Translations under genes and position numbers: made by a program | Origin: Candidatus Rokuibacteriota bacterium | GTDB taxonomy: Bacteria > Methylomirabilota > Methylomirabilia > Rokubacteriales > DASRDR01 | Length of the DNA: 47,009 nucleotides | Assembly (NCBI GenBank): GCA_044866005.1 | Contig: JBIOTN010000078.1 | Span: 1-47,009 of the forward strand | Direction of reading: 5' to 3' | Shown here: positions 79 through 14,181 of the stretch, one piece after another | Position numbering within the stretch: position 1 is the stretch's first letter | How the letters are laid out: every line of letters starts with the position of its first letter | The notes under the pieces: generated by a model | Seen by the model: the letters and a program-made list of their open reading frames with translations, nothing else | Database searches by the model: none | What the model was told of the DNA's origin: nothing

Positions 79-314
79 GCCAGCCAACTTTGTCACACGA
101 GCGGGCGGGCCGGATGCACGGCTTGCCGTCGCCTCGCAACTTCTGCCGGCGGGATCCCACCTGGGCCGCCCGCGCCGTCCACGGTTCGGCCGCGGGCGTG
201 GCGCGCGCGGTCAGCAGCCCGGCGGCGCGCCGGTAAGCAGACGCCTTCCGCTGCGAACATCACGGCCTTTACAGTCGCCTCCCGAGGCGGGCGTCTCGCA
301 CAAGCGTCGAGGTC

Positions 315-331
315 TGCAAACGCGATGCCGG
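315..331 (-). promoter_or_regulatory. Possible sigma54 -24/-12 promoter
   Basis: Minus strand CCGGCATCGCGTTTGCA has GG-N10-GC spacing with GGCA and TTGCA, and points toward the CDS at 78. Confidence 0.3.
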
Positions 332-650
332 TGGCGGCGCGGTCGGAGGCAGGCCGGCAGCGGCTCGCGAGCGAGCGAGCCCTGCCGGATTCTGCCGGAT
401 CACCTCCGCGAGCGCCGTTCTGGCTCGAGCCCGACGCGCGCGCGCCGCCGGCCCCGCGTTGCTCCTGCCGGCCGCCGCGCTCACCCCGGCGTGCGCCCTG
501 ACGGCCCTGGCCGCGCGCCCGCCCGCGAGGGTGCTGGCCGACTCGCGGACCGCGGATGCGCCCGTAGTCGGCCTTCGCTCGTGCGCGCGGTCTGGCGCGG
601 CGTCGCGGCCCGAACCCCGGTCGGCGCGGCGCGCGACGGAGCCGCGCGGC

Positions 651-1148
651 TCAGCGCCGGGGCAGCACGAGCTCCGGGGACCCGTCGAGCCGCAGCGCCA
701 GCCCGACGCGCGACTCACCCCTCGCGTCGTAGAGCGAGAGGCTCGGCGCGCCGTTCGGGGCCAGGACGAGCGAGGCCCGATTCTTCTCGTCCCGGTCGAA
801 GAGGGCGAGGGCGGAGGCGCCGTCGAGCGCCACGGTGAGCGAGGCGCGGAGGCGGCCGTCCCGGTCGGCGAGGGCGAGGCCCGACGAGCCGTCGGGCGCC
901 AGCCCGAGCGCGGCGCGGGTCGTGCCCTTCGGGTCCCGCAGCACGACCTTCTCCGCCTCGACGACCTTCGGGACGCCGGGCGGAAGGCCGGGCGGGCCCG
1001 GCGGCGCGGCCTGGCCCATGAGCGCGGCCGCCGCGACGGCGAGGAGCAGCGCGGTCGTACGCCGCTGCCGTCGCCGGTTGTCCGCCTCGAGCCGGATGAC
1101 TCGCTCCAACAGCATGCCGACCATGGCCTCGACGGCGGGCTCTTTCAT
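651..1148 (-). CDS. Hypothetical membrane-anchored repeat protein (paralog of 1180..1689)
   Basis: Short coiled coil, hydrophobic segment ending MGQA, VVEAEKVVLRD, then ~22-aa repeats of type DGxxxLxLxDxxGxxRAxL. Confidence 0.75.
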   Translation of the reverse strand: MKEPAVEAMVGMLLERVIRLEADNRRRQRRTTALLLAVAAAALMGQAAPPGPPGLPPGVPKVVEAEKVVLRDPKGTTRAALGLAPDGSSGLALADRDGRLRASLTVALDGASALALFDRDEKNRASLVLAPNGAPSLSLYDARGESRVGLALRLDGSPELVLPRR

Positions 1149-1179
1149 GGTCCCTGCCCTCGCCTGCGCCGGCGCCGGC

Positions 1180-1689
1180 TCACCGCGCGCCGGGGAAGAG
1201 AAAGATCTGCCCATCCGCCATCACGCCGAGCAACGCGCGCGCCTTCCCCGCCCGGTCGAAGAAGGTCAGCCCGGGGGCGCCGTCGGGGCCGACGTCGAGC
1301 GCGACGCGCTGCTTGCCGTCGCGGTCGACGAGCGCGACGATGGGGACGCCGTCCGCCCGCACGCTGAGGGTGAGGCGCGCCTTCTCGCCGCCGTCGAGGA
1401 AGACGAGGCCGGGCGAGCCGTCCGGCGCCAGGCCGAGGAGCGCGCGGGTCACGCCGTCCTTGCCGAAGAACCCGAGCGTCGGCGAGCCGTCCGGGAGGAC
1501 CGTCAGCTCGGTGCGGGCGACCCCGCTCGCATCCCGGAGCACGAACTTCTCGGCTTCGACGACCCTGGCCGCCTGCGTCGCCTGTCCCATCAGCGCCACC
1601 GCGCCGAGGCCCAGCAGGAGCACCCCCCCCAGCCGCTTGAGGCGCCGATGTTCCCGTTCCAGCCGTTCGAGCCGCTTCCCCGTCTCCAT
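1180..1689 (-). CDS. Hypothetical membrane-anchored repeat protein
   Basis: GGAGG RBS. Same architecture as the downstream gene (MGQA, VVEAEKFVLRD, DGSPxLxFxD repeats). Confidence 0.8.
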   Translation of the reverse strand: METGKRLERLEREHRRLKRLGGVLLLGLGAVALMGQATQAARVVEAEKFVLRDASGVARTELTVLPDGSPTLGFFGKDGVTRALLGLAPDGSPGLVFLDGGEKARLTLSVRADGVPIVALVDRDGKQRVALDVGPDGAPGLTFFDRAGKARALLGVMADGQIFLFPGAR

Positions 1690-1816
1690 GGCGCGCCTCC
1701 CTCGCTCCCCGGCGATCCGCGAACGCCTGCCCTGCCGTCAGACTAAACGAGAACAGCGCCCGCCGCGCCGTTCTTCCTGCGTGCGCGCGCGTCCCGCCGT
1801 CCGCGGGTCGGAGCCG

Positions 1817-1842
1817 GGAATAAGCCGGCTCGCCGCGGTGTT
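1817..1842 (+). promoter_or_regulatory. ECF (SigR/SigH-type) promoter GGAAT-N18-GTT
   Basis: GGAAT at 1817-1821 and GTT at 1840-1842, upstream of the RBS and ATG at 1866. Confidence 0.7.
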
Positions 1843-1865
1843 GCCCTGGTTGCCGGAGGGCGGCG

Positions 1866-2612
1866 ATGCTGGCGGCGCTCGACAGCGGGGTCAGCAGCTT
1901 GCGACGGCGAGCGGCACGAGGGGCGACCGGCGCCTCGCCGGAGAGCGAGGTCGCGTTCCGGACCGGCGTCGCGAGCGAGATCACCGGGATCAGCCAAGAC
2001 CGCCTCCAGGGCTGGCACCAGCGGGGCCTGCTCGCCCCGTCGGTGGCCGGCCCCGAGGTCCGGCCGCCACGCCAGGGCGTCGCCGGCCGGCGACCCGGCT
2101 CCGCCGGCCGGCGGTACAGCCTCGATGACCTGTTCCTCGCCCTGGTGATCCGGGAGCTCCTCGCCTCGAGCGTGCGCGTCGAGCGGGTGCGACTCGCGGT
2201 CGAGGCGCTCAAGGCTGCCTGCCCCGACCGCCCGCTGCGCCAGGCCCTGCGGGGCACGCGGCTGTGGCTCGTCGTGCCGCGAAGCGGCGCAGTCCGGCTG
2301 ATGGCCCGCCCGGGCGCCTCGAACGGGGGCGAGGATCGGCCGCAGGCGGTCGTGGCGCTTTCCCGCACGGCGCGAGCAGGGCGAGAGCTCTGGCTCGAAT
2401 GGCAGCGCCGGCGTCGCACACGGGCCGGCGACCGCGCCGGCCGTCGCCGGCGCGCCCGCGAGTCGGACCTGGAAGCTCAGCGCCTGCCGGCGGAACCCGA
2501 ATGGGCCGGGAACTCGCGCCGCCCTAGGTGCGCACCGAGGCCGCCTGCGTTCCACACTCCCGGTACGGAAACCGCCGGCTCTGCTTCGCCCGCGCCTCGA
2601 CCATCGCCGTGA
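1866..2612 (+). CDS. MerR-family HTH transcriptional regulator-like protein
   Basis: FRTGVASEITGISQDRLQGWHQRGLLAPS...RRYSLDDL matches a MerR HTH. The low-complexity tail overlaps the convergent gene, so the 3' end is uncertain. Confidence 0.65.
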   Translation: MLAALDSGVSSLRRRAARGATGASPESEVAFRTGVASEITGISQDRLQGWHQRGLLAPSVAGPEVRPPRQGVAGRRPGSAGRRYSLDDLFLALVIRELLASSVRVERVRLAVEALKAACPDRPLRQALRGTRLWLVVPRSGAVRLMARPGASNGGEDRPQAVVALSRTARAGRELWLEWQRRRRTRAGDRAGRRRRARESDLEAQRLPAEPEWAGNSRRPRCAPRPPAFHTPGTETAGSASPAPRPSP

Positions 2613-3045
2613 GCTGCCCCGCGTGCTCGCGCATGAAGCGGCGGAGGAACGGCCGCACGAGCAGCATGCCGACCAGCCAGCCGAACGTCCCTCCGCGGAG
2701 GCCGAACGTGCTCTCGTACCGAAAGCGCGTGCACCCGCCAACGTCCTCGAGGAGGAACCGGTCCCGCGCGAGGGCGAGCGGGCTCTCCACCGCCTCGAAG
2801 TCGATGCGCTCCGGCTCGTGGCGCGTGACCCAGTCCACTGACCGGTAGACCTGGCGCCGGCCCGTCACCGACCGGGTCACGGTGTGGAACTCGACGAGCA
2901 TCCGTCCGGCCTCCTCGCGCAGGACGCGGGACGATCCGCCGTCCGGCTGCCTGGCGCCGAAGGCTGTCAGCACCTGAAAGGCGAGGCGACGATCGGCATG
3001 GATGTGAACCTCGACCGGCTCCATGCGGATCGGGATGATCGCCAT
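2524..3045 (-). CDS. SRPBCC/START-like domain protein
   Basis: 173 aa with VHIHADRRLAFQVL, EPERIDF, GCTRFRYES and a C-terminal helix typical of SRPBCC. Directly downstream of the AhpD-like gene. Confidence 0.65.
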   Translation of the reverse strand: MAIIPIRMEPVEVHIHADRRLAFQVLTAFGARQPDGGSSRVLREEAGRMLVEFHTVTRSVTGRRQVYRSVDWVTRHEPERIDFEAVESPLALARDRFLLEDVGGCTRFRYESTFGLRGGTFGWLVGMLLVRPFLRRFMREHAGQLTAMVEARAKQSRRFPYRECGTQAASVRT

Positions 3046-3089
3046 GCGGCCGCGCGGTCAGGCGCCGGGACGTCCGAGACGCTCGCCTG

Positions 3090-3668
3090 TCACTCGGGGA
3101 CGCCGGGGAAGGTGGTTTTTGGCAGGGTCGCGTACTCGGGGTTCAGCTCGACCCCCAGCGCGTCGGCCACCCGCGTGATGAAGTTGAAGTAGCCGATGAT
3201 GCCGACCGCGTCCACGATCGCCTCGTCCGCGAAGCCCGCGGCCCGGAGCGCCCGGATGTCGGCTTCGCGGCACTCCCATTGCTGCGTGGTGAGCTTCCAC
3301 CCGAAATCGAGGAGCGCGCGCGTCCGACCGTCCACCGGCGCCGCCCGGTAGTCCCGCCCGATCGCGTCGGCGAGCGCCGGATCCCCCGTTTCAGCGCGAA
3401 GCCACGCCGAGTGGGCCTCGATTCAGTAGTGGCAGCGGTTGGCCGTCGAGACGACCAGCGCGAGCATCTCCCGCTGCGCGCGACCGAGCTCCGAGGGTCC
3501 GAACATCAGGGTCGTGAAGAGGCTCGTCGCCGACCGCGTCAGCTCGGGCCGGATGGTCGTGCTCTTGATGATGTTCGGGATCCAGCCTCGCTGGTTGAGG
3601 AGTCCCTCGTAGAGGCTCTTGACGTACCCGTCGGCCTGGGACTCTTCGACGGTCCTCACCCACGCCAT
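3090..3668 (-). CDS. AhpD/carboxymuconolactone-decarboxylase-like peroxidase-related protein, putative selenoprotein (CHYU, Sec82)
   Basis: ORFs 3423..3668 and 3090..3335 are in one frame, joined across TGA 3423-3425: REMLALVVSTANRCHY-U-IEAH...FNFITRVADALG. The TGA occupies the second Cys of the family CxYC motif. GGAGG RBS; downstream hairpin. Confidence 0.88.
3391..3410 (-). promoter_or_regulatory. SECIS-like hairpin
   Basis: TCGGCGTG-GCTT-CGCGCTGA: 8 bp including two GU pairs. The loop starts with G, 20 nt after the UGA. Confidence 0.6.
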
Positions 3669-3774
3669 CGAACGCCTCCTCCATCGGCGCGGCCCCGGGG
3701 TCGCCGCCCTCGGCGCCACGCCGTCCGGCGGCGGACTCGCAGCCGGCGGCACGCCGCTCTCGCCCTCAGGCTAC

Positions 3775-3800
3775 AACACGCGGGCGCGCCGCGACATTCC
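3775..3800 (-). promoter_or_regulatory. ECF promoter GGAAT-N18-GTT
   Basis: Minus strand GGAAT at 3800-3796 and GTT at 3777-3775, upstream of the AhpD-like selenoprotein gene. Confidence 0.72.
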
Positions 3801-3818
3801 CCGGCCGCGGCCCGGCGG

Positions 3819-4763
3819 CTACCGGGACGGCTCGGTCGGCGGAGGCCCGCTCGGCGCGGCGGGCGCAGCCTGCAGCTCCCGGCGGAGCCGGGCGATCGTG
3901 TCCTGCTCGAATTCCTGGAGGGATTGACCGAACGCGCGGCGGAAGTTCCCGAACCGGTCGTCGGAGGTCCGGAACATCCCGAAGTATCCGACCAGCGCGG
4001 GAAGCCCGTGGCGGCGGATCAGCTCGGCGGTCATGAGGAACGCCAGCCGGTAGGTCAAGCCGTCCCCCGTCTGCAGGTGGCGCGCCTCCCAGCCGCGGGG
4101 CCGCCCGAGGTCCACGAGGTCCAGCGGGACGGCGTCCAGGCGGCTGAGGTCCTCGCCGACGGCTCGCATCGCCGCCTCACGCTCGTCGCTGAGACGCGTC
4201 TGGCCGAGCCGCTCGAGCACCTGGCAGGCGACCCAGTCGGCCAGGCCCTCGCGCAGCCACTGCTCCGAGCTGCCGCGCCGCCCGGCGGACAGCTCGTACT
4301 GCGCGACGTGGGTCAGCTCGTGGGCCAGCACGACGAGCCAGGCGTGCGGGCGCCCCCGCCGCAAGGCGCCGTCGTTCAGGAACAGATGTCCCGCCTGGCC
4401 CAGACCGACCGAGTAGGCGGCGATCTCCGACGCCCGCCGGGCCGGCATCTGCCCCACTCCACGAAGCCCCGCGGCGTAGGCGGCGCGATCGGGATAGACG
4501 AATACCGTGAACTCGGCCGGCAGCGGAAGCCCGAGGTCGCCGATGATGATGGCCGAGATCGCCTCGATGGCGGCGTCGTAAGTCGTCGGCGGTTCGGCGG
4601 AGCGCGCGGGCGCGACGCTGTCGGGGGCGAGGCGGACGTGCAGGACCAGGCTCCGCCCGGCGCAGCCGGCGAGGAGAACGGCGACGAGCCCGAAAGCAGC
4701 GGCGCGCCCGCCCCGCCGTCCTCGGGGCATCGCCGCGCGGAAGCTCCCGACGTCCGTCCCCAC
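3819..4763 (-). CDS. Putative lipoprotein with zinc-metallopeptidase motif (peptidase MA-like)
   Basis: Lipobox LAGC, LAHELTHV (HExxH) and WLREGLAD. The start could be 4730. Confidence 0.72.
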   Translation of the reverse strand: MGTDVGSFRAAMPRGRRGGRAAAFGLVAVLLAGCAGRSLVLHVRLAPDSVAPARSAEPPTTYDAAIEAISAIIIGDLGLPLPAEFTVFVYPDRAAYAAGLRGVGQMPARRASEIAAYSVGLGQAGHLFLNDGALRRGRPHAWLVVLAHELTHVAQYELSAGRRGSSEQWLREGLADWVACQVLERLGQTRLSDEREAAMRAVGEDLSRLDAVPLDLVDLGRPRGWEARHLQTGDGLTYRLAFLMTAELIRRHGLPALVGYFGMFRTSDDRFGNFRRAFGQSLQEFEQDTIARLRRELQAAPAAPSGPPPTEPSR

Positions 4764-4945
4764 TCGCCCTCCCCCGATTGCCGCGTCGCCCCGAGGTGCC
4801 GCCCTTCAGGCCGTGGGGCGCCGCCGGGACGGCTACGGTTGTACCCGCTCGCCTCGCCGGGGTCCAGAGAAATCTCGGGCGGCGCAGCGCTCGTGAAGAT
4901 CGGCTCGAGCGGTGGGGAGGTCAGGCGCGAGGGGCGACACCGCGG

Positions 4946-5761
4946 TCAGGGCGCGGGCGGTCCGGCGCAGCGGAAGCCGATCAGGACGTGCCGGCTCTCT
5001 GCCGGCCGGCCATGGCGGAACGCGGGCCGGCAGAGGCCGGGCTCGTCGTCCCAGCCGCAGCCCTTGAGGACGCGCCGGCCGTCGGCGAGCGCCGAGGCGG
5101 TCCACTGGAAGACGTTGCCGACGGCGTCGAGGAGGCCGTAGGGGCTCGCGCCGGTCGGGTACCGGGTGACGGGAGTGGTCGCGCTCGGCCCGCGCGCCTC
5201 GCTGTTGAGCCGGTCGGGGTCCCAGCCATTGCCCCAGGGAAAGAGGTGCCCGTCGTCGCCCCGCGCCGCCTTCTCCCACTCGGCCTCCGAGGGCAGGCGC
5301 ACGGTCGGGTGGCGGGCACGGCAGAAGGCTGCCGCATCCGCCGCGCTCACGAGCACGACGGGGTGGTCGCCGAGACCCGCCGGCGGGTGGCCGTCGCGCC
5401 AGAGGTACCGCGTCACGACCCGGTCGTAGTCGTGCACGAGGAAGCCCTGGCGCCGGTAGTCCTCGCGGCTGATCCCCGGGGCGCGGTGGCCCGTCCGGGC
5501 CACGAACCGCTCGTACTCGGCCTGGGTGACCAGGTGACGATCGATGCAGAAAGCCGGCAGGCTCTCCTGCCGGCGGGGCAGCTCGGCGTCGAACCAGCGG
5601 GCCTCGCGCACGGCCGCGCTCGAGAGCGCGGCGGCCATGGCTCGCTCGGCCTGGTCGCTCCCCATCCAGAACGGGCCCGCCGGAACGAGCACCATGCGCT
5701 CCGCGTCGGCACACACCGCGCCGGCGGCGACGAGGGCGCCGAGGAACAGGCTACCGATCAC
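4946..5761 (-). CDS. FGE-sulfatase (SUMF1/EgtB/PvdO-like) domain protein, exported
   Basis: Signal peptide, VPAGPFWMGS, HPVVLVS, RLPSEAEWEKAARG, FPWG, SPYGLLDAVGNVFQW, IGFRC. Confidence 0.88.
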   Translation of the reverse strand: MIGSLFLGALVAAGAVCADAERMVLVPAGPFWMGSDQAERAMAAALSSAAVREARWFDAELPRRQESLPAFCIDRHLVTQAEYERFVARTGHRAPGISREDYRRQGFLVHDYDRVVTRYLWRDGHPPAGLGDHPVVLVSAADAAAFCRARHPTVRLPSEAEWEKAARGDDGHLFPWGNGWDPDRLNSEARGPSATTPVTRYPTGASPYGLLDAVGNVFQWTASALADGRRVLKGCGWDDEPGLCRPAFRHGRPAESRHVLIGFRCAGPPAP

Positions 5762-5767
5762 GGCCCG

Positions 5768-6765
5768 TCATCGTCCCCGGCGCGCCGGCAGCCGCCAGCG
5801 CACGGTCGGGGCTTTGAGCGCGAGCGTCGCGCCGGCGGCCATGGCGGCCGTCGCGACGGCGCTGTTGACGGACAGGATCGAAAGCCCGGTGAGGGCGTTG
5901 CCGACGTTGCAGCCGGCCGCCAGCGTGCCCCCGATGCCCATCAAGAGCCCGCCGGCAGCGCGGCGGCAGAGCTCGGAGGCGGGCGGGACCCGCCACCGAA
6001 CGCCTCCCTGGGGGCGCGCGCTCACGAACGTGCCGAGCGGCACCCGACCAGCATCGCCGTTCCCCAGGAGAGAGGCGCCACGGTGCGTCCCAGCACAGCC
6101 TCGACAAGCGAGCGGCTGGGGCCGGTCATCGACAGCCCCCAGGCCCACCCGGCAGCGGCTCCGGTCAACCAGGCGAGAACCCCGGCGGCGCCGAGGACCA
6201 CGCCCGTGGCCGACCACGGCCAGGCGCCCGGCTCGCGCGGCACAGGCGGCAGGCGCCGGAAGAGGGCAGCGATCGCGAGAATCGCCGCGGCAACGACCAG
6301 CCAGGCCGGCACGTCGAGGAGGGCGTCGAGCGACGGCGCGAGCGGGGGCCGCGACCGGGCCTCGCCGAGCCAGCCGGCGAGCGAGAGGAGCGGCCCCCGG
6401 ACTGTGAACAGGCCACCCAGGCCGAAGGCGAGGGCAGCCACGGTCGCGCCGACGCTTCCGGTCCCGGCCCGGGACCAGACCGACGTGGCTCACCCCTTGG
6501 CGAGGATCATACCCACGCCGAAGACGGCCCCGCCCACCGCCGCGCCGAGCACCGCGACGGGCGGCACGGGGACGCGGAGGAGCCCCCAGGCGGCCAGTCC
6601 ATTGACGGTGCCGAGCTGGAGGGCGAGCGCCAGAAGGTAGGCGCGCCCGGAGGGCCCGGCGTGGCCCGCGAGCGCCTCGCGAAAGGCCGAATGCATGCAG
6701 AAGTCCCCCCGATGCAGGGCAACCCCGAGGCCGAGGCCGACCAAAAGCGCAGCCGCCATCCACAT
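5768..6765 (-). CDS. YeeE/YedE-family sulfur-compound transporter, putative selenoprotein (Sec92), with one frameshift near 6044
   Basis: Motifs: HRGDFC, GGAVFGVGMILAKG-TGA(6490-6492)-ATS, and GGLLMGIGGTLAAGCNVG. Segments 6490..6765 and 6022..6441 share a frame. The C-terminus continues in another frame after GTCGGGTGCCG (one G missing). GAGGAGG RBS. Confidence 0.8.
6457..6479 (-). promoter_or_regulatory. SECIS-like hairpin
   Basis: TCTGGTCCCG-GGC-CGGGACCGGA: 10 bp with one GU pair. The loop starts with G, 20 nt after the UGA. Confidence 0.62.
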
Positions 6766-6776
6766 CTACCTCCTCG

Positions 6777-6802
6777 AACCCGCCGCGTGCCCGCGTCATT
6801 CC
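6777..6802 (-). promoter_or_regulatory. ECF promoter GGAAT-N18-GTT
   Basis: Minus strand GGAAT at 6802-6798 and GTT at 6779-6777, just upstream of the YeeE start. It would give a very short leader. Confidence 0.62.
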
Positions 6803-6819
6803 GCCGAGAAAGACCCACT

Positions 6820-6844
6820 GGAATAAACGGCGCCGGGCCGGGTT
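6820..6844 (+). promoter_or_regulatory. ECF promoter variant GGAAT-N17-GTT
   Basis: GGAATA at 6820 and GGGTT ending at 6844. Divergent from the YeeE promoter, upstream of the Cys-repeat peptide. Confidence 0.58.
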
Positions 6845-6882
6845 CTGGGTAGCAGCGGAGTGTGCTCCGCGGAAAGGGGGTG

Positions 6883-7107
6883 ATGCCCGTGGTGCGACGC
6901 GTGATCGGCACCGTCTCCGCGGCCGCGCTCCTGGCGCTGGGCGGCGGGGTGGCCGCGCAGCAGGCGAACCCGTGCGCCGCCAAGAACCCCTGTGCCGTGA
7001 AGGCCGGGAACCCGTGCGCCGCGAAGAACCCCTGCGCCGCGAAAAACCCCTGTGCGGCCAAGAACCCCTGCGCCGCCAAGAACCCCTGCGCGCCGAAGAC
7101 CCAGTAG
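6883..7107 (+). CDS. Small secreted Cys-rich peptide with seven NPCAAK-type repeats
   Basis: RBS AAAGGGGG; signal peptide ending VAA-QQ. The mature part is almost entirely NPCA(A/V/P)K. The start may be 6883, 6889 or 6892. Confidence 0.85.
   Translation: MPVVRRVIGTVSAAALLALGGGVAAQQANPCAAKNPCAVKAGNPCAAKNPCAAKNPCAAKNPCAAKNPCAPKTQ
6967..7098 (+). repeat. 18-nt coding tandem repeat (7 units, one 6-nt insertion)
   Basis: Units of AACCCSTGYGCSGCSAAR; variation is mostly synonymous third-position changes. Confidence 0.9.
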
Positions 7108-7117
7108 GGTGGGACCC

Positions 7118-7150
7118 CCGGGGCTGTCCCCCACCCCGGGACAGCCCCGG
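7118..7150 (+). terminator. Perfect 13-bp hairpin after the peptide gene (terminator or mRNA stabiliser, no U-tract)
   Basis: CCGGGGCTGTCCC-CCACCCC-GGGACAGCCCCGG. Confidence 0.55.
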
Positions 7151-7231
7151 AGGCGGGCGGCGGGCTGGACGGGGGTACACTCGGAACGACCGGCACGGGA
7201 TCGCGAGGTCCCGCCCCGGAACGCTTCAGGC

Positions 7232-7257
7232 GGAATAACCACGTGCCATTGCGGGTT
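7232..7257 (+). promoter_or_regulatory. ECF autoregulatory promoter GGAAT-N18-GTT
   Basis: GGAAT at 7232-7236 and GTT at 7255-7257, directly upstream of the sigma factor gene. Confidence 0.78.
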
Positions 7258-7280
7258 TACGATCTGAGCATCGCGGAAAG

Positions 7281-7868
7281 GTGCCGGTGATCGGCTGGAT
7301 GGCGGGGGACGACCGGGTCCGGGAGTTCGAGGAGACGGTGCTCGTCCACCTCGATGCCCTCTACCGAGTCGGGCTCCGGTTGACCCAGAACCGGGCCGAA
7401 GCCGAAGATGTGGCGCAGGAGACGTGCCTCCGGGCCTTCCGGAGCTTCCACCGCTTCAACGCGGGGACGAACTGTCGGGCCTGGCTCTTCACGATCCTGC
7501 GTAACGTCTTCCTGAACCGGCTGCGGCGGGCGGGGCGCGAGGCCGTCCCGACCGACCCGGCCGTGTGGGAGTCGGTGGGAGCAGAGAGCGTGACGGCGAT
7601 GACACCGGTCGCGGACAATCCCGAGGAGGAGTTCTTCCAGACGGTGCTCCACGGCGACGTGGATCGGGCCCTGAAGGGGTTGCCGCTCGTCTTCCGCGAG
7701 GCCGTGATCCTGGCCGACCTGGAAGGGCTCAGCTACAAGGAAATGAGCGAGGCCCTGGGCTGCCCGATCGGGACGGTGATGTCGCGGCTGTTCAGGGGAC
7801 GCAACCTCCTTCGTCACGCGCTCGCCCGGTACGCCCGCGAGCACGGATACATCAAGGGACCGGAATGA
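7281..7868 (+). CDS. ECF RNA polymerase sigma factor (SigR/SigH-like)
   Basis: AEDVAQETCLRAFRSFHRFNAGTNCRAWLFTILRN (region 2) and LEGLSYKEMSEALGCPIGTVMSRLFRGR (region 4). Alternative start at 7299. Confidence 0.93.
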   Translation: MPVIGWMAGDDRVREFEETVLVHLDALYRVGLRLTQNRAEAEDVAQETCLRAFRSFHRFNAGTNCRAWLFTILRNVFLNRLRRAGREAVPTDPAVWESVGAESVTAMTPVADNPEEEFFQTVLHGDVDRALKGLPLVFREAVILADLEGLSYKEMSEALGCPIGTVMSRLFRGRNLLRHALARYAREHGYIKGPE

Positions 7869-8647
7869 CCTGCGAAGAGTTTCGGGCGCGCCTGTCCCCG
7901 TACGCCGACGGCGAGGTCGGCGTCGACGAGACCCTCGCCGCGGACGCGCACGCCGCGCGGTGCGGCCGCTGCGAGGCCCTCGTCGCGCGCGAACGGCAGT
8001 TCCGCCAGCTCCTGCGGCGTCAGCCGCGGGAGTCGGCGCGCCCGGAGCTTCGCGCCCGGATCCTCGCGGAGTGCCGCCGGGAGGTGCGTCGGGCGCGGCT
8101 CCGACCCTGGCTCTGGGCCCCGCCCCTCGCGGCCGCGGCGGCCCTGGCGGTCGCGGCGCTCCTGCCGGCGACGCGCCCGGCCCCGCCTGTCGTCGGGCAG
8201 CTCGTGGCCGTTCACCTCGCGTACGCGGAGCTCGAGCGCCCGGCGGAGTTCGCCTCGACCGATCGCGCCGAGGTCGAAGAGTGGTTCCATCAGCGCGCGC
8301 GGCTTCGCGTCATCGTGCCGGACTACTCGTCGGCGGGGATCCGCCTGGTCGGCGGGCGCATCGCCGAGGTCCGCGAGCGGCGCGCCGCGTATCTCCTCTA
8401 CGAGAAGGGGCACACGCTCCTGTCGGTCTTCATGCTGCCCGTCCCGGCCGGTGACCTGCGCCTCACCGGCACGCGCAGGAGCTCCGGGGGGTTTGAGTAC
8501 TACACCGAGGAGCGGAACGGGCTCCGCACCGTCTCCTGGACGGAGGGAGAGTCGCTCTTCGGGCTCGTGTCCATGCTGGACTACGACGCCCTCTTCGAGT
8601 GCGCGGACCGGCTGCGCGCCGAGCGGGCAAGCCAACGTCCACTCTAG
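7865..8647 (+). CDS. Zinc-finger (zf-HC2/ZAS) transmembrane anti-sigma factor
   Basis: ATGA overlap with the sigma gene. MTCEE...HAARCGRC (HxxxCxxC), a TM helix and an extracytoplasmic domain. Confidence 0.9.
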   Translation: MTCEEFRARLSPYADGEVGVDETLAADAHAARCGRCEALVARERQFRQLLRRQPRESARPELRARILAECRREVRRARLRPWLWAPPLAAAAALAVAALLPATRPAPPVVGQLVAVHLAYAELERPAEFASTDRAEVEEWFHQRARLRVIVPDYSSAGIRLVGGRIAEVRERRAAYLLYEKGHTLLSVFMLPVPAGDLRLTGTRRSSGGFEYYTEERNGLRTVSWTEGESLFGLVSMLDYDALFECADRLRAERASQRPL

Positions 8648-8657
8648 GCGCCGCGCC

Positions 8658-9764
8658 GTGCGACTCCGCGTCCCCGCTCTCACGGTGGCGGCCGCCGGGC
8701 TGGCGCTCGGGATCGCCTGGGCCTGGGCCGGGCCGGTCACGCTCCGGACGGACGCGAGCAAGGCGCTCGTCCCGCTGGACGAGATCATCTCGGGCGGCCC
8801 GCCGCCCGACGGCATCCCCGCGATCGACCGGCCGGCCTTCGTGAGCCCGGCGGAGGCCGCGGGCTGGCTCACGCCGCAGGAGCCCGTCCTGGCCGTCGAG
8901 ATCGGCGGGGACGCCCGCGCCTACCCGCTCCAGATCCTGATGTGGCACGAGATCGTCAACGACACGGTGGGCGGGCGGCCCGTCGCGGTCACCTACTGCC
9001 CCCTCTGCAACTCCGGCCTGGCGTTCGATCGCGTCGTGGACGGGACCCCGTTCGACTTCGGGACCTCCGGGAAGCTCTACAAGAGCGACCTCGTCATGTA
9101 CGACCGCCAGACGCACTCCCTCTGGGCGCAGATGGAGGGGCGCGCCATCGTCGGGGAGCGCGCGGGCAGTCGCCTCGCCCGGATCCCCGCGAACACGATC
9201 GCCTTCGCCGAATGGCGGGCCGCCCACCCGCGGGGCAAGGTCCTCTCCCGGGAGACCGGGCACCGCCGGGCCTACGGCGCCAACCCGTACACCTCGTACG
9301 ACCAGCCGACGCTCCAGCCCTTCCTCTTCGACGGCCGGCCGGACCCGCGGCGCCCGCCGAAGGAGCGGGTCGTCGGGCTCACGCTCGGCGGACAGCCGCG
9401 CGCCTACCCGTGGCCCGTCCTGGAGCAGGCGCGCGTCGTCCACGATCAGGTCGGCGGCGAGCGCGTCGTGATCTTCTACCAGCCGGGCACGCTCTCGGCC
9501 CTCGACGGGTCGCGGATCGCGGAGTCGCGGGCCATCGGCGCGACGGCTGCCTTCAGCCCCGTGCTCGACGGCCGGGCGCTGACCTTCGAGCCCGCGCATG
9601 ACGGCTTCCGCGACCGGGAGACGGGGAGCCTCTGGAACCTCCTGGGCCACGCGGCCAAGGGACCGCTCGCCGGCAAGCGCCTGCGTCCCGTGCCCCACGT
9701 CGACGCCTTCTGGTTCGCCTGGGCCGCGTTCAACCCGACCACCACGATCCACGGGACGCCGTGA
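8658..9764 (+). CDS. DUF3179 domain protein, exported
   Basis: SGGPPPDGIPAID, RAYPLQILMWHEIVND, VTYCPLCNSG, FGTSGKLYKSDLVMYDRQT, FWFAW. Confidence 0.88.
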   Translation: MRLRVPALTVAAAGLALGIAWAWAGPVTLRTDASKALVPLDEIISGGPPPDGIPAIDRPAFVSPAEAAGWLTPQEPVLAVEIGGDARAYPLQILMWHEIVNDTVGGRPVAVTYCPLCNSGLAFDRVVDGTPFDFGTSGKLYKSDLVMYDRQTHSLWAQMEGRAIVGERAGSRLARIPANTIAFAEWRAAHPRGKVLSRETGHRRAYGANPYTSYDQPTLQPFLFDGRPDPRRPPKERVVGLTLGGQPRAYPWPVLEQARVVHDQVGGERVVIFYQPGTLSALDGSRIAESRAIGATAAFSPVLDGRALTFEPAHDGFRDRETGSLWNLLGHAAKGPLAGKRLRPVPHVDAFWFAWAAFNPTTTIHGTP

Positions 9765-10363
9765 CGGCCGCCGAGGAGCTCGTCTCCCTGCTCGAAGGGC
9801 TCGAACGCGCCGGCAGCTCGGTGATGGCGCTCGTTCGCGGGGGCCGGCCCGGGGTCCCGTGGACCCTCTACCCGAACGAGTGGGGGATCTTCGACCGCCG
9901 GACGCGCTGCCAGTTCTACTACCACGCCCACGCGGGCGCGGAGCACGAGGACGGCCACTTCCACATGGTCCGCCTCTTCCCGGACCACACCGTCCACGTG
10001 GCCGCGGTCTCGATGGCGCCGAGCGGCTGGCCCCGCGCGCTCTTCACCGTGAACCTCTGGGCGATCGGCGACGCGTACGCGCCTGCGGACGAGCTCAAGC
10101 GGCACGCGCGCCAGTTCCGGCTGTTCCGGGCGCGCGGCGACGCGCGTGTGGTCCGCTTCGTCAACCTCCTCTTCCGCGCCTTCCTCCCCGAGATCGAGTG
10201 GCTCCAGGACGAGAAGGAGCGGACGCTCGCCGCCTACCGCGCCGCGCACCCGGACGCCGACCCGTTCCAGGACCGCTCGCTCGAGGTCCTGAGCCAGATC
10301 GCGCTCGACGTCCGCGAGCGCCGCGAGGCGGGGGTGGCGGCCGTGCCGGGCCTCAGGGCATGA
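9761..10363 (+). CDS. His-motif hypothetical protein (DUF6969-like)
   Basis: GTGA overlap; QFYYHAH...EHEDGHFH...LFTVNLW. Confidence 0.72.
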   Translation: MTAAEELVSLLEGLERAGSSVMALVRGGRPGVPWTLYPNEWGIFDRRTRCQFYYHAHAGAEHEDGHFHMVRLFPDHTVHVAAVSMAPSGWPRALFTVNLWAIGDAYAPADELKRHARQFRLFRARGDARVVRFVNLLFRAFLPEIEWLQDEKERTLAAYRAAHPDADPFQDRSLEVLSQIALDVRERREAGVAAVPGLRA

Positions 10364-10935
10364 GACGCGCCGTCGTCCGGCTCCTGCTCGCCGCTGCCCT
10401 CGCCCTGGGCGGCCTTGCGGCCGCGGGCGCCGGGACGCCGGGGACCGGGCCGGCGCCCGAGCTGTGGCGCGCGGCGGGCGTCACGCGGATGGCCCGGGGC
10501 GTCGCGGCACGACCGTTCGTGCTGCCGGACCTCCGGGGCACGCCCGTTCGCCTCCAGGACTTGCGCGGGCGCGTCGTCCTGCTCTACTTCTGGGCCACCT
10601 GGTGACCGCACTGCGCGAGGGAGTTACCCTCGATCGACGCGCTGGCCCGTGAGCTCGGCGGCCGTGGCCTCACCGTCCTCCTGATCGATCTGTACGAGGA
10701 CAGAGACACCGTCGCGGCGGCCGTGGCCCAGCGGGGCTACACCGTGCCCGTCCTCCTGGACCGCGACGGGCAGGCCGCCGACGCCTTCGGCGTCCACGCC
10801 ACGCCGACGGTCTTCCTGATCGGACGCGACCGCATGATCCTCGGGAGCGCGATCGGACCCCGATCCTGGGACCGTCCGGAAGCGCGCGCGCTGCTCACGG
10901 CGCTCCTCGAGGCCACGCCGGTCCCGGCCCGCTGA
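10360..10935 (+). CDS. TlpA/ResA-like thiol:disulfide redoxin, putative selenoprotein (WUPHC, Sec82)
   Basis: ATGA overlap; signal peptide. FVLPDLRG...GRVVLLYFWATW-TGA(10603-10605)-PHCARELP...FGVHATPTVFLI continues in frame to 10935. Confidence 0.9.
10616..10632 (+). promoter_or_regulatory. SECIS-like hairpin
   Basis: CGAGGG-AGTTA-CCCTCG; loop 16 nt after the UGA. It includes a TTA codon, rare in such GC-rich DNA. Confidence 0.62.
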
Positions 10936-10994
10936 GAGCCGCGGCGGAGCCCGGCGGTCCAGAGAGCCGCTCGCGTGGCGTCCGCCGCCATCCT

Positions 10995-11861
10995 TCAGAC
11001 CGCCAGGAGGATGACGCCGACGACGATCAGGCTCGCGCCGGTCAGGCGCTGCGGCCGGTTCGGCTCGCCGAGGGTCACCACGCCGAGCAATGTCCCGAAG
11101 ACGATCCCGAGCTCCCGAGCGGGCGCCACGTAGCTGACCGGGGCCAGGCGAAGCGCGAACAGCACGAGGACGTAGCCCGACGTCATCAACAGCGCGACCG
11201 CCGGGATCGCCAGGCGGTTCGCGCGCCACTCTGCGGCGATCGCCCCGGGTCGCCGCGCGGCGGCCGGCGTGAGCAGGAGCGCGGCGACCGGGATCGTGAG
11301 GTAGGCGTAGAGGAGCGGGTCGGCCCCGCGCGTCACGTTCCACTTGTCCACGACCGAGTACGTCGCGGTGATGAGGCCCGTGAGCGCGGCGGGGCGGGCG
11401 TGGGGCAGGCGGAGGGCCCGGAACGGCGCGAGGAGGTCGGCGGTGGCGAGGCCCGGCAGGTGCAGGACGTAGACGCCCAGGGCGACGGCGCCGATCCCGA
11501 GCGCGCCCACGGCCGACGGCCGCTCGCCCAGGAGGAGGATCGCGACCGGCGGCACGAGCACCGGCGCCATGCCTCGGGCCAGCGGGTAGACGAGCGAGAG
11601 GTCGCCTCGCGCGTAGGCGGCGCCGAGGGCGCCGAAGTACGCGGCCCGCAGGGTCGCCGCCAGCGCGATCCCCGCCCAGAGCCCGGCCTCGCCGGGCCAG
11701 GCCGGGCGCCACCAGACGAGGGCGGGCAGGAAGAGCAGCGAGCCCGCCAGGCCCGTCCACCAGAGGAAGAGCGGCTTGTCCCGGCTCGCCTTCGTCAGGA
11801 GGTTCCAGACCGCGTGGAAGACGGCGGACGTCGTGACGAGGAGGAGGGCGAGGCCGGTCAC
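10995..11861 (-). CDS. EamA/DMT-family transporter
   Basis: SAVFHAVWNLLTK, GDLSLVYPLARG, VAPARELGIVFG...LGE; about 10 TM segments. Confidence 0.88.
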   Translation of the reverse strand: MTGLALLLVTTSAVFHAVWNLLTKASRDKPLFLWWTGLAGSLLFLPALVWWRPAWPGEAGLWAGIALAATLRAAYFGALGAAYARGDLSLVYPLARGMAPVLVPPVAILLLGERPSAVGALGIGAVALGVYVLHLPGLATADLLAPFRALRLPHARPAALTGLITATYSVVDKWNVTRGADPLLYAYLTIPVAALLLTPAAARRPGAIAAEWRANRLAIPAVALLMTSGYVLVLFALRLAPVSYVAPARELGIVFGTLLGVVTLGEPNRPQRLTGASLIVVGVILLAV

Positions 11862-11918
11862 GGCTCGCCGGCCGGCGGGCGAGCCGCCTCGGCCCCGGCC
11901 GCCGCGCGCCCGCGCGCC

Positions 11919-12443
11919 TCAGTGCTCGAGCTCGGTCCCCAGGGCTTCGTTGACGCGGTTGGTGAAGTTGGCGGCCGCGACGCTCAGCGTGAGCTGCACG
12001 AGGGCCTCCGGTGACAGATGGCGCTGGAGCGCCTCGACCAGCGCGGGATCCACCTGCACCTTCCGCGTCATCTCCTCGGCGTACCGGAGAACGAGCCGCT
12101 CGAGCTCGGAGAAGAGCGGGCTGGTCGCGTAATCCGAGAGCGCGTCGAGCTTCTCTTTGGGGACCCCGACCCTCTGCCCGAGGGCCGCGTTGTGGGTCGC
12201 TCAGTAACGGCAGCCGTTGAGCTGCGAGGCCTTCACGTACGCGAGCTGGCGGAGCTTGATGTCGAGCGCGCCCTCCCGGAGCGTCGGGTACCACTGGAGG
12301 AACGGCGGCAGGGAGCGCGCGTGGTGCGCCATCAGCTTGAAGAAGTTCCCGACGCGCCCCGTGGCCTTCTGCAGGCCGTCGTATGCCGCCTGGACCTCGG
12401 GGGGCGCCTGGTCGCGCTCCACGTAGGGAAGCCTCGCCGCCAT
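11919..12443 (-). CDS. Second AhpD/CMD-family protein, putative selenoprotein (CRYU, Sec81)
   Basis: LRQLAYVKASQLNGCRY-TGA(12201-12203)-ATH...FSELERLVLRYAEEMT...ANFTNRVNEALGTELEH-stop. The C-terminal half is absent from the ORF track. AAGGAG RBS. Confidence 0.88.
12167..12187 (-). promoter_or_regulatory. SECIS-like hairpin
   Basis: CGGCCCTC-GGGCA-GAGGGTCG: 8 bp, G-rich loop 21 nt after the UGA. Confidence 0.62.
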
Positions 12444-12556
12444 CGCTCTCTACTCCTTTGCCGTCGCCGCGGCTCCATCATGCGGCAACAGCCGGGTGAC
12501 CGTCCAGCGCGTCCCGCGGCGCGCCGCCGGCTGCGCACGGCGCCGCGTAGCGTGCG

Positions 12557-13219
12557 CTAGCGGCCGAGGGCCGCGGCGAGCGCGGTCAGGTCCGGCACCG
12601 TGAGGTCCGGCGTCAGCCCGAGCCCGTCGAGCGGCGCCTTCCCGCGGTTGACCCAGACGACCGGGAAGCCGTACGCTTTCGCGCCGATGACGTCCCAGCC
12701 GTTGGACGAGACGAACCCGATCGCCTCCTTGGGGAGGCCGAGTCGCGCGGGCCCCAGCGCGTAGACCTCCGGGGCCGGCTTGAACCGGCGGACCGCGTCC
12801 ACGCTGATGACGGCCGTGAGGAGGCTTCCGAGACCGGCGTGCGCCACGACGGCGTCGAGCATCTTCGGCGCGCCGTTCGAGAGGATGGCGCAGGGGATGC
12901 CCCGGAGGCGCTCCAGCACCGCGCGCACCTCGGGATACGGGTCCAGGCGCAGGTAGGCGTCCATGAGGCGGGCGCGCTGGGCCGCGCCGACCTCGAGTCC
13001 CAGGCGGCGGCACGCGAAGTCGAGCGCCGCCTCGGTGACGGTCCAGAAGTCCTCGTAGCGCCCCATGAGCGTGCGGAGCCACGTGTACTCGAGCTGCTTC
13101 GCGCGCCAGACGTTGGAGAGCGCCGCGGGATCGCTGGTGACCGCGCGGCCGGCCTCGATGACCGAGTGGACGTCGAAGAGCGTGCCGTAGGCGTCGAACA
13201 GGAGCCCCTTGACCTGCAT
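12557..13219 (-). CDS. Haloacid dehalogenase type II
   Basis: FDAYGTLFD, WRAKQLEYTW, LSNG, KPAPEVY, VSSNGWD. AGGAGG RBS before ATG 13219. Confidence 0.92.
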   Translation of the reverse strand: MQVKGLLFDAYGTLFDVHSVIEAGRAVTSDPAALSNVWRAKQLEYTWLRTLMGRYEDFWTVTEAALDFACRRLGLEVGAAQRARLMDAYLRLDPYPEVRAVLERLRGIPCAILSNGAPKMLDAVVAHAGLGSLLTAVISVDAVRRFKPAPEVYALGPARLGLPKEAIGFVSSNGWDVIGAKAYGFPVVWVNRGKAPLDGLGLTPDLTVPDLTALAAALGR

Positions 13220-13249
13220 CGCGCGCACCTCCTGGGGGCCGGCGTCGGC

Positions 13250-13278
13250 TTGCCAGCTCCGGGTCGAACCCGTACAAT
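13250..13278 (+). promoter_or_regulatory. Sigma70-type promoter TTGCCA-N17-TACAAT
   Basis: Near-consensus hexamers with a 17-nt spacer, ending 9 nt before GTG 13288 (near-leaderless). Confidence 0.65.
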
Positions 13279-13287
13279 GAGCGCGCC

Positions 13288-13521
13288 GTGGCGCGGACGG
13301 TCACCTACAAAGGCCACCAGATCCGGGCGCACGCCGTCCTGGTCCCCGACTCCGACGAAGGGGACTGGGCCGCGCAGGCGGTGGTCCGAGTCCCCGTCCC
13401 GGGCGGCGGGCGCGAGCAACGGCTTCCGGACCCCGACGACCGCATCTTCGCCACGCAGGAAGACGCCGAAGGCTACGCCGTCCACCTGGCGATGCGGTGG
13501 GTCGACCGGCACGGCCTGTGA
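13288..13521 (+). CDS. Small hypothetical protein
   Basis: 77 aa, GC3-biased codons, promoter immediately upstream, GTGA coupling to the next gene. Confidence 0.7.
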   Translation: MARTVTYKGHQIRAHAVLVPDSDEGDWAAQAVVRVPVPGGGREQRLPDPDDRIFATQEDAEGYAVHLAMRWVDRHGL

Positions 13522-13856
13522 CGCCGCGCCGGGCGCTCGGCTGCCTCGGGGCGCTCGGGCTCGCCGCCTGCGCGAGCTTCGCGCCCTTGCGCCAGCCCCC
13601 GCTCGCGCCATCGGCGGACCCGACCGCCGGCGTCAGCACGCGCGCCGACGCGATCGCGCGATTCGGTCCCCCGGACGAAGTGCGCGCCTCGGACCTCGGC
13701 GAGGTGCTGGTCTACCGCCGGCGCGTCGTCGTGGACGCCAACCCGAACCGCTTCTACGGCATCGATCGGGGCGCGCGGTTCGACCGGTACGAGCGTCTGT
13801 TCCTCTACCTGGACGCCGACGGCCGCATCGTCCGCTGGACGGCCGAGCCGGAGTAA
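13518..13856 (+). CDS. Hypothetical lipoprotein
   Basis: Lipobox LAAC; TRADAIARFGPPD resembles small SmpA/OmlA-like lipoproteins. Confidence 0.65.
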   Translation: MTPRRALGCLGALGLAACASFAPLRQPPLAPSADPTAGVSTRADAIARFGPPDEVRASDLGEVLVYRRRVVVDANPNRFYGIDRGARFDRYERLFLYLDADGRIVRWTAEPE

Positions 13857-14062: not shown

Positions 14063-14181
14063 TTATCTTTACAAACCCGAGCCGGCGCGGAGCCATCGGA
14101 CGAGGCTCGCCGCGCGCAGCCGCTCGCCGCCCGGGGCGCGGACGGCCGGTGGGGATGTCGGCTCGCGTTGTGGAGGCCCCG

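Follow-up and report, generated by a model that had tools for sequence, protein, structure and literature searches.

The 47,009-nucleotide (nt) stretch of DNA considered here (hereafter the window: the whole of contig JBIOTN010000078.1, assembly GCA_044866005.1, forward strand) carries at positions 6883 to 7107 of the + strand a small gene for an exported, cysteine-bearing repeat peptide, which we characterize together with its relatives and genetic surroundings. This open reading frame (ORF), defined by reading of the sequence and by homologues, begins with ATG at 6883 and includes its stop codon at 7105-7107; a purine-rich ribosome-binding site, AAGGGGG, can be read at 6874-6880 (+), its end 3 nt ahead of the ATG. 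The 74-residue product comprises a leader with successive basic, hydrophobic and small-residue portions, MPVVRRVIGTVSAAALLALGGGVAAQQ, followed by alanine and by seven units built on the tripeptide Asn-Pro-Cys (NPC): NPCAAK, the eight-residue NPCAVKAG, four further copies of NPCAAK, and NPCAPK, the C-terminus reading ...NPCAPKTQ. The units, of the general form NPC-x-x-K, occupy 6967-7098 (+; residues 29-72) and contribute seven cysteines. The leader (27 residues; 6883-6963, +) is predicted to be a Sec signal peptide from its n-, h- and AxA-like features, and the mature chain would be 47 residues long if cleavage falls after AAQQ. Routing through the Sec pathway is suggested by these features and by the relatives described below, which have such a leader in common or, in some cases, a lipobox in its place. 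An initial annotation of this DNA had already proposed a signal peptide followed by seven cysteine-containing repeats, which this reading bears out. Its claim that the repeats vary mostly synonymously is also correct, since the 126 pairwise codon comparisons among the seven units gave 42 synonymous versus 11 non-synonymous differences. At the DNA level, Tandem Repeats Finder reports a period of 18 with 6.7 copies (6966-7091; score 128), and all six frames are open across this G+C-rich tract.

Beyond the stop codon lies an inverted repeat (7115-7153, +; arms 7115-7130 and 7138-7153, separated by a 7-nt loop) whose centroid fold contains a perfect stem of 13 bp. The hairpin of the initial annotation is thus real; the abundant, stable transcript read from it finds no support, because its fold energy is ordinary for the G+C-rich composition (z -0.83; 41 of 200 shuffled sequences fold equally well) and no U-tract follows, which leaves an inverted repeat rather than a demonstrated terminator or stabilizer. 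A strong terminator, considered as a candidate, was rejected on the same statistics and the missing U-run. The locus also occurs in contigs of soil sequencing runs from two studies. Their assemblies break within the repeat, where summed contig depth is 79-149, versus about 13 in the flanks.

Scans of Pfam and NCBIfam assigned the peptide to no family (E ≤ 0.01). The search for NPCAAK-repeat proteins and their neighborhoods that the initial annotation had suggested was nevertheless productive: 345 proteins among 1002 candidates scored at E ≤ 0.01 (best E 1.5e-19), and a scan of one genome per species yielded 77 distinct NPC loci with their gene neighborhoods. All relatives are named "hypothetical protein" at source; their organisms include Nitrosomonas, Pseudomonas shahriarae, Motiliproteus, Tectimicrobiota, Binatia, Planctomycetes and Nostocaceae. 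Nearly all of 23 homologous sequences inspected consist of a leader (sometimes with a lipobox) and NPC-type repeats, and two represent the C-terminal portion of a cytochrome with repeats of this kind at its end. The closest of the 77 loci belong to Rokubacteria/Methylomirabilota, the remainder to Beta-, Gamma- and Alphaproteobacteria, Nitrospinota, Myxococcota and Thermoanaerobaculia. Because relatives retain the leader-plus-repeat layout across phyla, with E-values down to that of the best match, the ORF is more than a chance occurrence, and its sequence supports a genuine, exported cysteine-repeat product under purifying selection. The genome containing the window has three NPC genes in total. 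Two paralogues lie on a second contig, C175 (we retain our working labels C, L and G where contigs, loci and genomes must be told apart): one encodes a peptide, and the other a protein in which two NPC blocks flank an unassigned domain of about 90 residues, for which the ESM Atlas returned no match at 0.9 or above.

In the clustering, the NPC family comprised 96 ORFs, which came from the window, the C175 locus and 72 of the 77 loci. ORFs in other loci were called mechanically as the longest available, so that some starts are over-extended, and some of the counts given here depend on clustering thresholds. Stand-alone NPC proteins account for 45 of the 96, and 31 (28 plus those of L021, L029 and L079) are fusions to a monohaem domain. 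Fifteen fall in a cytochrome P460-like class, including one member (L075:8808-9518) devoid of an NPC unit; two are fusions to another cytochrome c (L024, L035), and three represent that same cytochrome free of repeats. The monohaem domain finds its best Pfam match in SoxA-TsdA_cyt-c (E 4e-10 and 6e-10, above cut-off), and its invariant features are C-x-x-C-H, P-H, a methionine, and a cysteine 38-40 residues past the haem histidine in the motif EMVQxC[ML]. In an AlphaFold2 model of one fused relative the haem core is predicted with a per-residue confidence (pLDDT) above 90 and the NPC stretches with 40-50, as expected of predicted disorder. The top 11 Foldseek matches to the domain are all TsdA or SoxA (probability 0.99-1.00, about 21% identity, 95-135 columns) and are weak by E-value (3e-3 to 7e-2); in sequence-profile comparisons, likeness to CCP/MauG is confined to the haem-binding N-terminus, and the longest alignment is to SoxA (1h31; E 0.006). 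TsdA and SoxA use a cysteine-ligated haem to form S-S bonds. No close copy of this domain was found in the genome containing the window (best E 0.005). Two of the P460-like proteins were scanned against Pfam, one of which (L011) scores 64.3 bits against a cut-off of 27 and the other (L072) weakly, at 23.3 bits. Since the NPC repeat is found on SoxA/TsdA-like and P460 haem proteins and also alone, we regard it as a portable module of periplasmic redox proteins, predicted to be disordered and cysteine-bearing, that also exists free-standing. The plain analogy to metallothionein offered in the initial annotation does not predict its occurrence as a tail on catalytic c-type cytochromes. Members of one cluster of Terasakiella NPC-P460 proteins (P0125; 90% identity) range from 225 to 299 residues, a spread suggesting that closely related strains rapidly acquire and lose NPC units. 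Where relatives bore precomputed Pfam labels, some of these (Cornifin, Extensin) are low-complexity artefacts, and the open articles searched, taken as main texts, yielded nothing relevant on NPCAAK-type repeats or on P460 proteins with cysteine-rich repeats. The NPC family is a widespread, uncurated and previously undescribed class of cysteine-repeat modules.

The most constant companion of these genes is DUF6969, encoded in the window at 9761-10363 (+). The initial annotation had looked to DUF3179, an FGE-like protein and TlpA as possible partners and had not singled out DUF6969. When the neighbors in the window were compared by tblastn with the 77 NPC loci, DUF6969 was recovered in 42, DUF3179 and the sigma factor in 14 each, the FGE-like protein in seven, and the anti-sigma factor, TlpA and YeeE in one each, so that the three suggested partners recur in 14, 7 and 1 of 77 loci. 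Clustering of all neighbors de novo gave DUF6969 in 43 loci, DUF302 in 19, extracytoplasmic function (ECF) sigma factors in 18, full-length YeeE in 16, DUF3179 in 14, multihaem cytochromes and histidine kinases in 13 each, a VTT protein with a flavin adenine dinucleotide (FAD)-disulfide reductase in nine, thioredoxin in eight, and MerR-family regulators and DsbD_TM in six each. In most NPC loci the NPC gene stands immediately upstream of DUF6969 on the same strand. In the window DUF6969 is single-copy for the genome and lies 2.65 kb downstream of the peptide gene, within the sigma operon.

The association also emerges when DUF6969 is taken as the starting point. Among 401 genomes of the class around Marinobacter, 36 carry DUF6969; 30 loci were extracted with 1.5 kb on either side, 29 of them with upstream sequence. 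In 16 of the 29, the upstream sequence contains an ORF on the same strand that combines a hydrophobic leader with four or more cysteines per 30 residues, versus none of 29 in an opposite-strand control, and translations read by eye raise the number with a leader-plus-cysteine ORF to about 25 (adding L137, L141, where it lies downstream, L142, L148, a weak case, L149, L153, L154, L155 and L156). By eye no such ORF was seen in L145, L157, L159 or L161 of this sample. The partner peptides are diverse, comprising NPCAAK, NPCAPSARGG, GGNPCAPGNPCAPGGGYGG and HPCMPEEAKGKMMDA types, CSGC/GCC runs, xPC[GS]LDx behind a membrane anchor, and HPCMPEEAKG...; cysteine is the sole constant across these hypervariable sequences. 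The type of peptide follows the similarity tier of the accompanying DUF6969, a match that may reflect co-evolution or simply phylogeny. Within the phylum of the window, 201 sampled genomes included 15 with DUF6969 and 36 (counting the unpublished genome G101) with NPC proteins at E ≤ 1e-6; NPC proteins were present in 13 of the 15 DUF6969 genomes versus 23 of the other 186, counts that are descriptive only, because related genomes are not independent. In 11 of the 13 genomes with both, the two genes share a contig within 8 kb, and one of the two DUF6969 genomes counted as lacking NPC (G166) proved to have an NPC-type ORF beside DUF6969 after all (L087). The window peptide conforms to the class that we propose, a leader followed by tandem one-cysteine units, usually x-Pro-Cys, with DUF6969 in the same locus and here in the same regulon.

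DUF6969 proteins are about 200-290 residues long and have no signal peptide. An alignment of 33 sequences reveals invariant P38, D45, Q51, Y53, Y54, H55, H57, E63, G65, H66, F67, H68, H79, G89, F95, N98 and W100, which form the motif Q-x-YYH-x-H ... E-x-GHFH ... H. An AlphaFold2 model (pLDDT 87.6; predicted template-modelling score 0.86) places the two HxH pairs on adjacent strands, and by analogy with other HxH/H sites this modelled arrangement is a probable metal site. Searches for a recognizable fold returned little: the best Foldseek match in the PDB had E 0.22, the best in a wide VIA-align comparison had Z 3.9, the PDB sequence profile gave a chance-level match, and the ESM Atlas gave no usable one. 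A profile search collected 1,294 representatives of 50%-identity clusters at E ≤ 0.001, 434 of them at E ≤ 1e-30. In two long forms DUF6969 lies N-terminal to a coiled coil, a transmembrane (TM) segment and an outer SH3 domain, an order with which a cytoplasmic location of DUF6969 fits; these fusions, and a tandem DUF6969, inform on topology and gave no enzymatic clue. Prediction of a complex between DUF6969 and the peptide scored 0.02 against a mark of 0.32, which speaks neither for nor against binding. Open articles, again as main texts, contained no mention of DUF6969 or PF22308.

The peptide gene has its own promoter and stands just ahead of the sigma gene, both as initially annotated. Its promoter, GGAATAAAC-N-GGGTT (6820-6844, +), has the form GGAAT-N17-GTT and is one of six sites in the window matching GGAAT-N17/18-GTT, a pattern we take to be the SigR/SigH-type ECF consensus; 0.46 sites are expected, and none of 100 shuffled sequences reached six. 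The motif is shared with the promoter of the sigma gene itself (7232-7257, +), which precedes an operon encoding an ECF sigma factor (7281-7868, +; best NCBIfam match SigH_actino, below cut-off), a membrane anti-sigma factor (7865-8647, +; zf-HC2, a TM segment and HxxxCxxC, here HAARCGRC), a DUF3179 protein (8451-9764, +; CPLC motif, the true start probably later than 8451), DUF6969 and TlpA. The remaining sites precede YeeE (6777-6802, -; divergent from the peptide promoter, an arrangement also seen in L009), an AhpD-like gene (3775-3800, -), a MerR-family regulator (1817-1842, +; gene 1866-2612) and a DoxD/DoxX-like gene followed by MerF (14037-14062, +; DoxD/DoxX-like 14149-14700). Genome-wide, 31 sites occur in 4.67 Mb, six on this 47-kb contig and three on C175 close to the NPC paralogues, one of the latter about 45 nt ahead of the third NPC paralogue. 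Five relatives (L010, L011, L014, L070 and L081) likewise carry the motif, at a distance of 35-60 nt upstream from their NPC genes. From these shared motifs we infer that the promoters depend on this sigma factor, and that the peptide would be switched on with the local regulon by an ECF sigma factor held by a ZAS-type membrane anti-sigma factor. The Vreelandella utahensis locus encodes (L068:4928-5767, +) a single protein that joins the zf-HC2 domain of an anti-sigma factor to an AhpD-like CMD domain, beside an ECF sigma factor and an NPC-cytochrome/DUF6969 pair; in the window the regulon has its own gene for the CMD protein.

The setting among thiol and selenol redox genes that had been noted before, including a TlpA with an in-frame TGA, was also recovered. 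TlpA/redoxin (10360-10935, +) has TGA at the first position of its CxxC motif (WATW-U-PHC). The YeeE/Sulf_transp transporter (6022-6765, -) has one at codon 92 (GKG-U-ATS), which is kept in relative L009, and the AhpD-like/CMD peroxidase-related protein (3090-3752, -; TIGR01926, 146.7 bits against a cut-off of 81.8) has one in RCHY-U. With a second TlpA (FWATW*; L004 2135-2692, -) and a FAD disulfide reductase (C-LGTG-U; G000 C175:67356-68666, -), this makes five genes near NPC loci with in-frame TGA exactly at the position of a catalytic cysteine, and NPC islands are likely to be unusually rich in selenoproteins, judging from these codons. An Rfam scan of window positions 1-16000 at E ≤ 1 found nothing, and hence no curated selenocysteine insertion sequence or leader RNA. 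An excerpt of PMC9312934 lists DUF3179 (UxxC/T) and YeeE/YedE among selenoprotein families. The regulon also includes a MerF-family cysteine-pair transporter (14770-14995, +, in an ORF open from 14597; NF033565, 82.3 bits against a cut-off of 50). Downstream of YeeE lies an exported FGE-sulfatase-like protein (4946-5761, -), the one that recurs in seven of 77 loci. Between it and the AhpD-like gene a 314-residue exported protein (3819-4763, -) with weak HExxH metallopeptidase-like matches below cut-offs has no relative in the 77 loci.

The YeeE frame itself appears shifted past about residue 240: it ends with TGA near 6030 (-), beyond which the conserved C-terminal part (…GGTLAAGCNVGN…) is encoded in a different frame; the L009 homologue keeps its frame at this point. 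In four soil runs from two studies the contigs have the same DNA with no indels, which leaves a real frameshift, a split gene, or a shared feature of assembly or population. The second NPC locus of the genome (G000 C175:62000-79260, L130) encodes on one strand a dihaem cytochrome c, a TlpA with selenocysteine, the NPC-domain-NPC protein, a multihaem cytochrome (ExtKL-like, below cut-off) and DUF302, and on the divergent side the third NPC peptide, whose promoter is again GGAATAAA...TGTT, and the selenocysteine-containing FAD disulfide reductase. In relative L009 both NPC loci are combined on one contig.

Two themes recur in these neighborhoods. The link to soft metals that the initial annotation had drawn is strengthened by MerF, above its curated cut-off and in the same promoter set, and by full or partial mer operons beside relatives. 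MerR plus MerT occur in four of 77 NPC loci (L016, L029, L033 and L058), MerR of L029, L033 and L058 exceeds the Hg-MerR cut-off, and L058 presents the order NPC, DUF6969, MerR, MerT, MerP, MerA, all above curated cut-offs; HMA, a heavy-metal P-type ATPase and MerA-like FAD reductases are found among the neighbors of NPC genes. No MerA above cut-off was found in the genome containing the window. On the side of sulfur and selenium, YeeE is found in 16 of 77 NPC loci and in eight of 30 DUF6969 loci, and DUF302 in 19 of 77; in truncated sox clusters, according to an excerpt of PMC5037610, its gene separates soxA from soxB. An ArsR-rhodanese regulator occurs in L042, and a SelD fusion protein is among the neighbors in L028. 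Histidine kinases near relatives are of a generic BaeS/heavy-metal-like kind, all below cut-offs, and were set aside as evidence. In Aromatoleum anaerobium (L083:3388-6845) the NPC/DUF6969 pair and a VTT+FAD-reductase gene have, immediately upstream, two S-adenosylmethionine (SAM) methyltransferases and a radical-SAM/DUF3641 protein, of a type classed as arsenosugar-type ArsS, a neighborhood that may represent a metalloid-handling context.

Since the metal and sulfur/selenium themes are inseparable from sequence alone, we chose as our interpretation the mechanism common to both, in which the peptide, a polythiol, would trap or carry thiophilic species in the periplasm, whether soft metals or sulfur/selenium compounds; we give this proposal an even chance of being right. 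The product, exported by Sec and intrinsically disordered, would present the cysteines of its seven Asn-Pro-Cys units and would be made together with the selenocysteine-containing YeeE and AhpD-like proteins, DoxX-MerF, the MerR-like regulator, and the operon of sigma factor, anti-sigma factor, DUF3179, DUF6969 and selenocysteine-containing TlpA. In the periplasm its seven thiolates would act as a multivalent trap and hand-off arm, capturing a soft metal, for example Hg(II) or Cu(I), or else sulfane, thiosulfate or a selenium species. The captured species could then pass to membrane proteins with cysteine or selenocysteine relays, MerF and YeeE, or in fused relatives to the haem center, while TlpA and DUF3179 (CPLC) would keep the cysteines reduced or return them to that state. 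The analysis establishes that the gene is real, that it encodes an export signal and conserved repeats, that its promoter motif is shared, how often given neighbors recur and that the module forms domain fusions; which species is bound, how it is passed on, how the cysteines cycle and what DUF6969 does are proposals. Several points weigh against the proposal. Contexts of both kinds occur; mer genes adjoin only four of 77 loci, and their proximity possibly reflects just the clustering of resistance islands; TlpA adjoins in only one of 77 (tblastn). Free cysteines tend to form disulfides in the oxidizing periplasm. A tighter form of the promoter motif, GGAAT-N15/16-G[GT]GTT, occurs nowhere else in the genome, a distinction that is partly circular because this form was derived from the same six sites it counts. 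A purely periplasmic trap leaves unexplained the most constant partner, the cytoplasmic DUF6969, and that partnership may mean that the cysteines are chemically modified before export.

Such modification is the principal rival explanation and is compatible with metal binding as an end function. In it the system would resemble those of peptides made by the ribosome and then modified after translation (RiPPs): DUF6969, as a cytoplasmic metalloenzyme, would modify the repeat cysteines of stand-alone peptides and cytochrome tails before Sec export, and the modified peptide rather than the free thiol would be active in the periplasm, probably as a metallophore. We consider this possible, at a clearly lower probability than an even one. 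The 43 of 77 NPC loci with DUF6969, mostly directly downstream on the same strand, the reciprocal recovery of leader-plus-cysteine ORFs (16 of 29 versus 0 of 29; about 25 by eye) and the co-occurrence in the phylum sample (13 of 15 versus 23 of 186) all point this way, as do peptides that keep cysteine alone and match their DUF6969 tier. So do the protein's lack of a signal peptide, its invariant H55, H57, E63, H66, H68 and H79 on adjacent strands resembling a metal site, and the two representatives with DUF6969 ahead of a TM segment and outer SH3; an excerpt of PMC11626156, moreover, describes bufferin operons that likewise pair a Sec-signal cysteine peptide with a cytoplasmic metalloenzyme and DoxX. 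Yet DUF6969 resembles no enzymatic fold or family in the Foldseek, VIA, PDB-profile and ESM Atlas comparisons. NPC proteins occur in genomes where DUF6969 was not found (the 23 of 186, plus G204 and G205), and in the window's genome three NPC genes face a single DUF6969, 2.65 kb away in the sigma operon. In L157, L159 and L161, DUF6969 accompanies YeeE with no detected peptide, and because of this co-occurrence DUF6969 might rather work on a substrate that is imported, or serve as a holdase. The more specific proposal, that DUF6969 is a metal-dependent peptide-modifying enzyme of new fold, its modelled HxH/HxH/E site acting on exported cysteine-repeat peptides and cytochrome tails to make MNIO-independent periplasmic metallophores or chalcogen carriers, is one we advance tentatively, as a touch less probable still.

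A second possibility confines the function to sulfur or selenium. The peptide would carry its cargo covalently, in the manner of the swinging arm of SoxY but multivalently, receiving thiosulfonate, persulfide or selenotrisulfide adducts from SoxA/TsdA-like haem domains and feeding YeeE-type transporters. The 31 fusions to a haem domain with an invariant cysteine suggest this, as do YeeE, divergent here from a back-to-back promoter pair and recurrent elsewhere, the ArsR-rhodanese regulator of L042, DoxD-type proteins (by Pfam name, thiosulfate:quinone oxidoreductase proteins), and DUF302 in 19 of 77 loci, given its position in truncated sox clusters (excerpt of PMC5037610). The structural matches of the haem domain are weak, however (E 3e-3 to 7e-2), and the window's genome has no close homologue of it (best E 0.005); the 30 commonest neighbor clusters include no SoxY, SoxZ or SoxB cluster, 15 relatives belong instead to the P460-like class (by Pfam for the two scanned, one above cut-off), and mer operons adjoin four loci. 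We think this explanation unlikely. That the ORF does nothing, being a chance product of G+C-rich repeats or a low-complexity linker or spacer devoid of chemistry, might be supposed from its six open frames, the lack of a Pfam or NCBIfam family and the artefactual Cornifin and Extensin labels on relatives. Conservation largely refutes this: the leader and NPC repeats are kept across phyla while spacer residues and DNA vary, codon changes are mostly synonymous, and the gene has its own ribosome-binding site, an enriched promoter and synteny with DUF6969, so that the sequence makes this reading highly improbable.

The peptide can be compared with several known systems. In bufferin systems, as an excerpt of PMC11626156 describes them, Sec-signal precursors (BufA) are modified in the cytoplasm, and the operons further encode the MNIO BufB, the DUF2063 protein BufC and the DoxX protein BufD; by analogy this would be the closest precedent for modification by DUF6969. 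Alike are the small Sec-signal cysteine peptide encoded with a cytoplasmic protein bearing a metal-type motif, the DoxX-family gene in the regulon of the peptide, the predicted periplasmic product and the link to metal stress. A leader and seven cysteines agree with the bufferin pattern of Sec signal and conserved cysteines, a generic pattern that does not prove membership; bufferins are further marked by 5-thiooxazoles, which the MNIO makes from their cysteines, and by Cu binding. Unlike bufferins, the peptide is a predicted disordered tandem repeat rather than a small folded protein, it matches neither DUF2282 nor BUF_6/12Cys precursor families (no Pfam or NCBIfam family at E ≤ 0.01), and its partner DUF6969 has no detectable similarity to MNIO; as the initial annotation had observed, no MNIO (DUF692; PF05114) lies in the window, the sole copy of the genome being on contig C21, nor is there DUF2063 near the peptide.

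The mercury relay of MerP, MerT, MerF and MerA, with the flexible cysteine tails of MerA, offers a periplasmic thiol ligand beside cysteine-pair membrane transporters, and MerF belongs to the promoter set here; some relatives lie beside merR-merTPA, and fused relatives have flexible cysteine arms at a redox center. The peptide differs in having no HMA fold or GMTCxxC and no HMA or MerP match (the true MerP of L058 scores 102.4 against a cut-off of 92.55), its genome lacks MerA above cut-off, and mer genes occur in only four of 77 loci. The SoxY carrier arm with SoxAX and the thiosulfate dehydrogenase TsdA are paralleled by cysteines on a flexible peptide beside or fused to a SoxA/TsdA-like haem domain with a conserved cysteine, and by DUF302 and YeeE neighbors; unlike SoxY, the peptide has no SoxY/SoxZ fold or GGCGG end and many cysteines rather than one, no close copy of the haem domain was found in the genome, and neither a family match nor a Sox cluster among the 30 commonest neighbor clusters appeared. 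Bacterial metallothioneins of the SmtA/BmtA type are cytosolic, without signal peptide, and have CxC/CxxC clusters. The peptide is likewise small, cysteine-rich and probably a metal ligand, but it is predicted to be exported, carries one cysteine per six residues in strict NPC context, and has no metallothionein match in Pfam.

If these proposals are correct, bacteria of many phyla, among them soil Methylomirabilota, Beta-, Gamma- and Alphaproteobacteria, Nitrospinota and Myxococcota, carry an unrecognized two-gene module consisting of an exported cysteine-repeat peptide and DUF6969. Such a module would deal, in the periplasm, with soft metals or with sulfur/selenium in reactive form, and in some cases it would be built onto TsdA/SoxA-like or P460 haem enzymes. 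It would give DUF6969, with its 1,294 cluster representatives, a testable function, and possibly add a peptide-modification chemistry parallel to that of bufferins. The compact ECF regulon has promoter, sensor and outputs that can all be read from the DNA, and cultivable carriers (Marinobacter, Thalassospira, Aromatoleum and Pseudomonas shahriarae) make the question directly testable.

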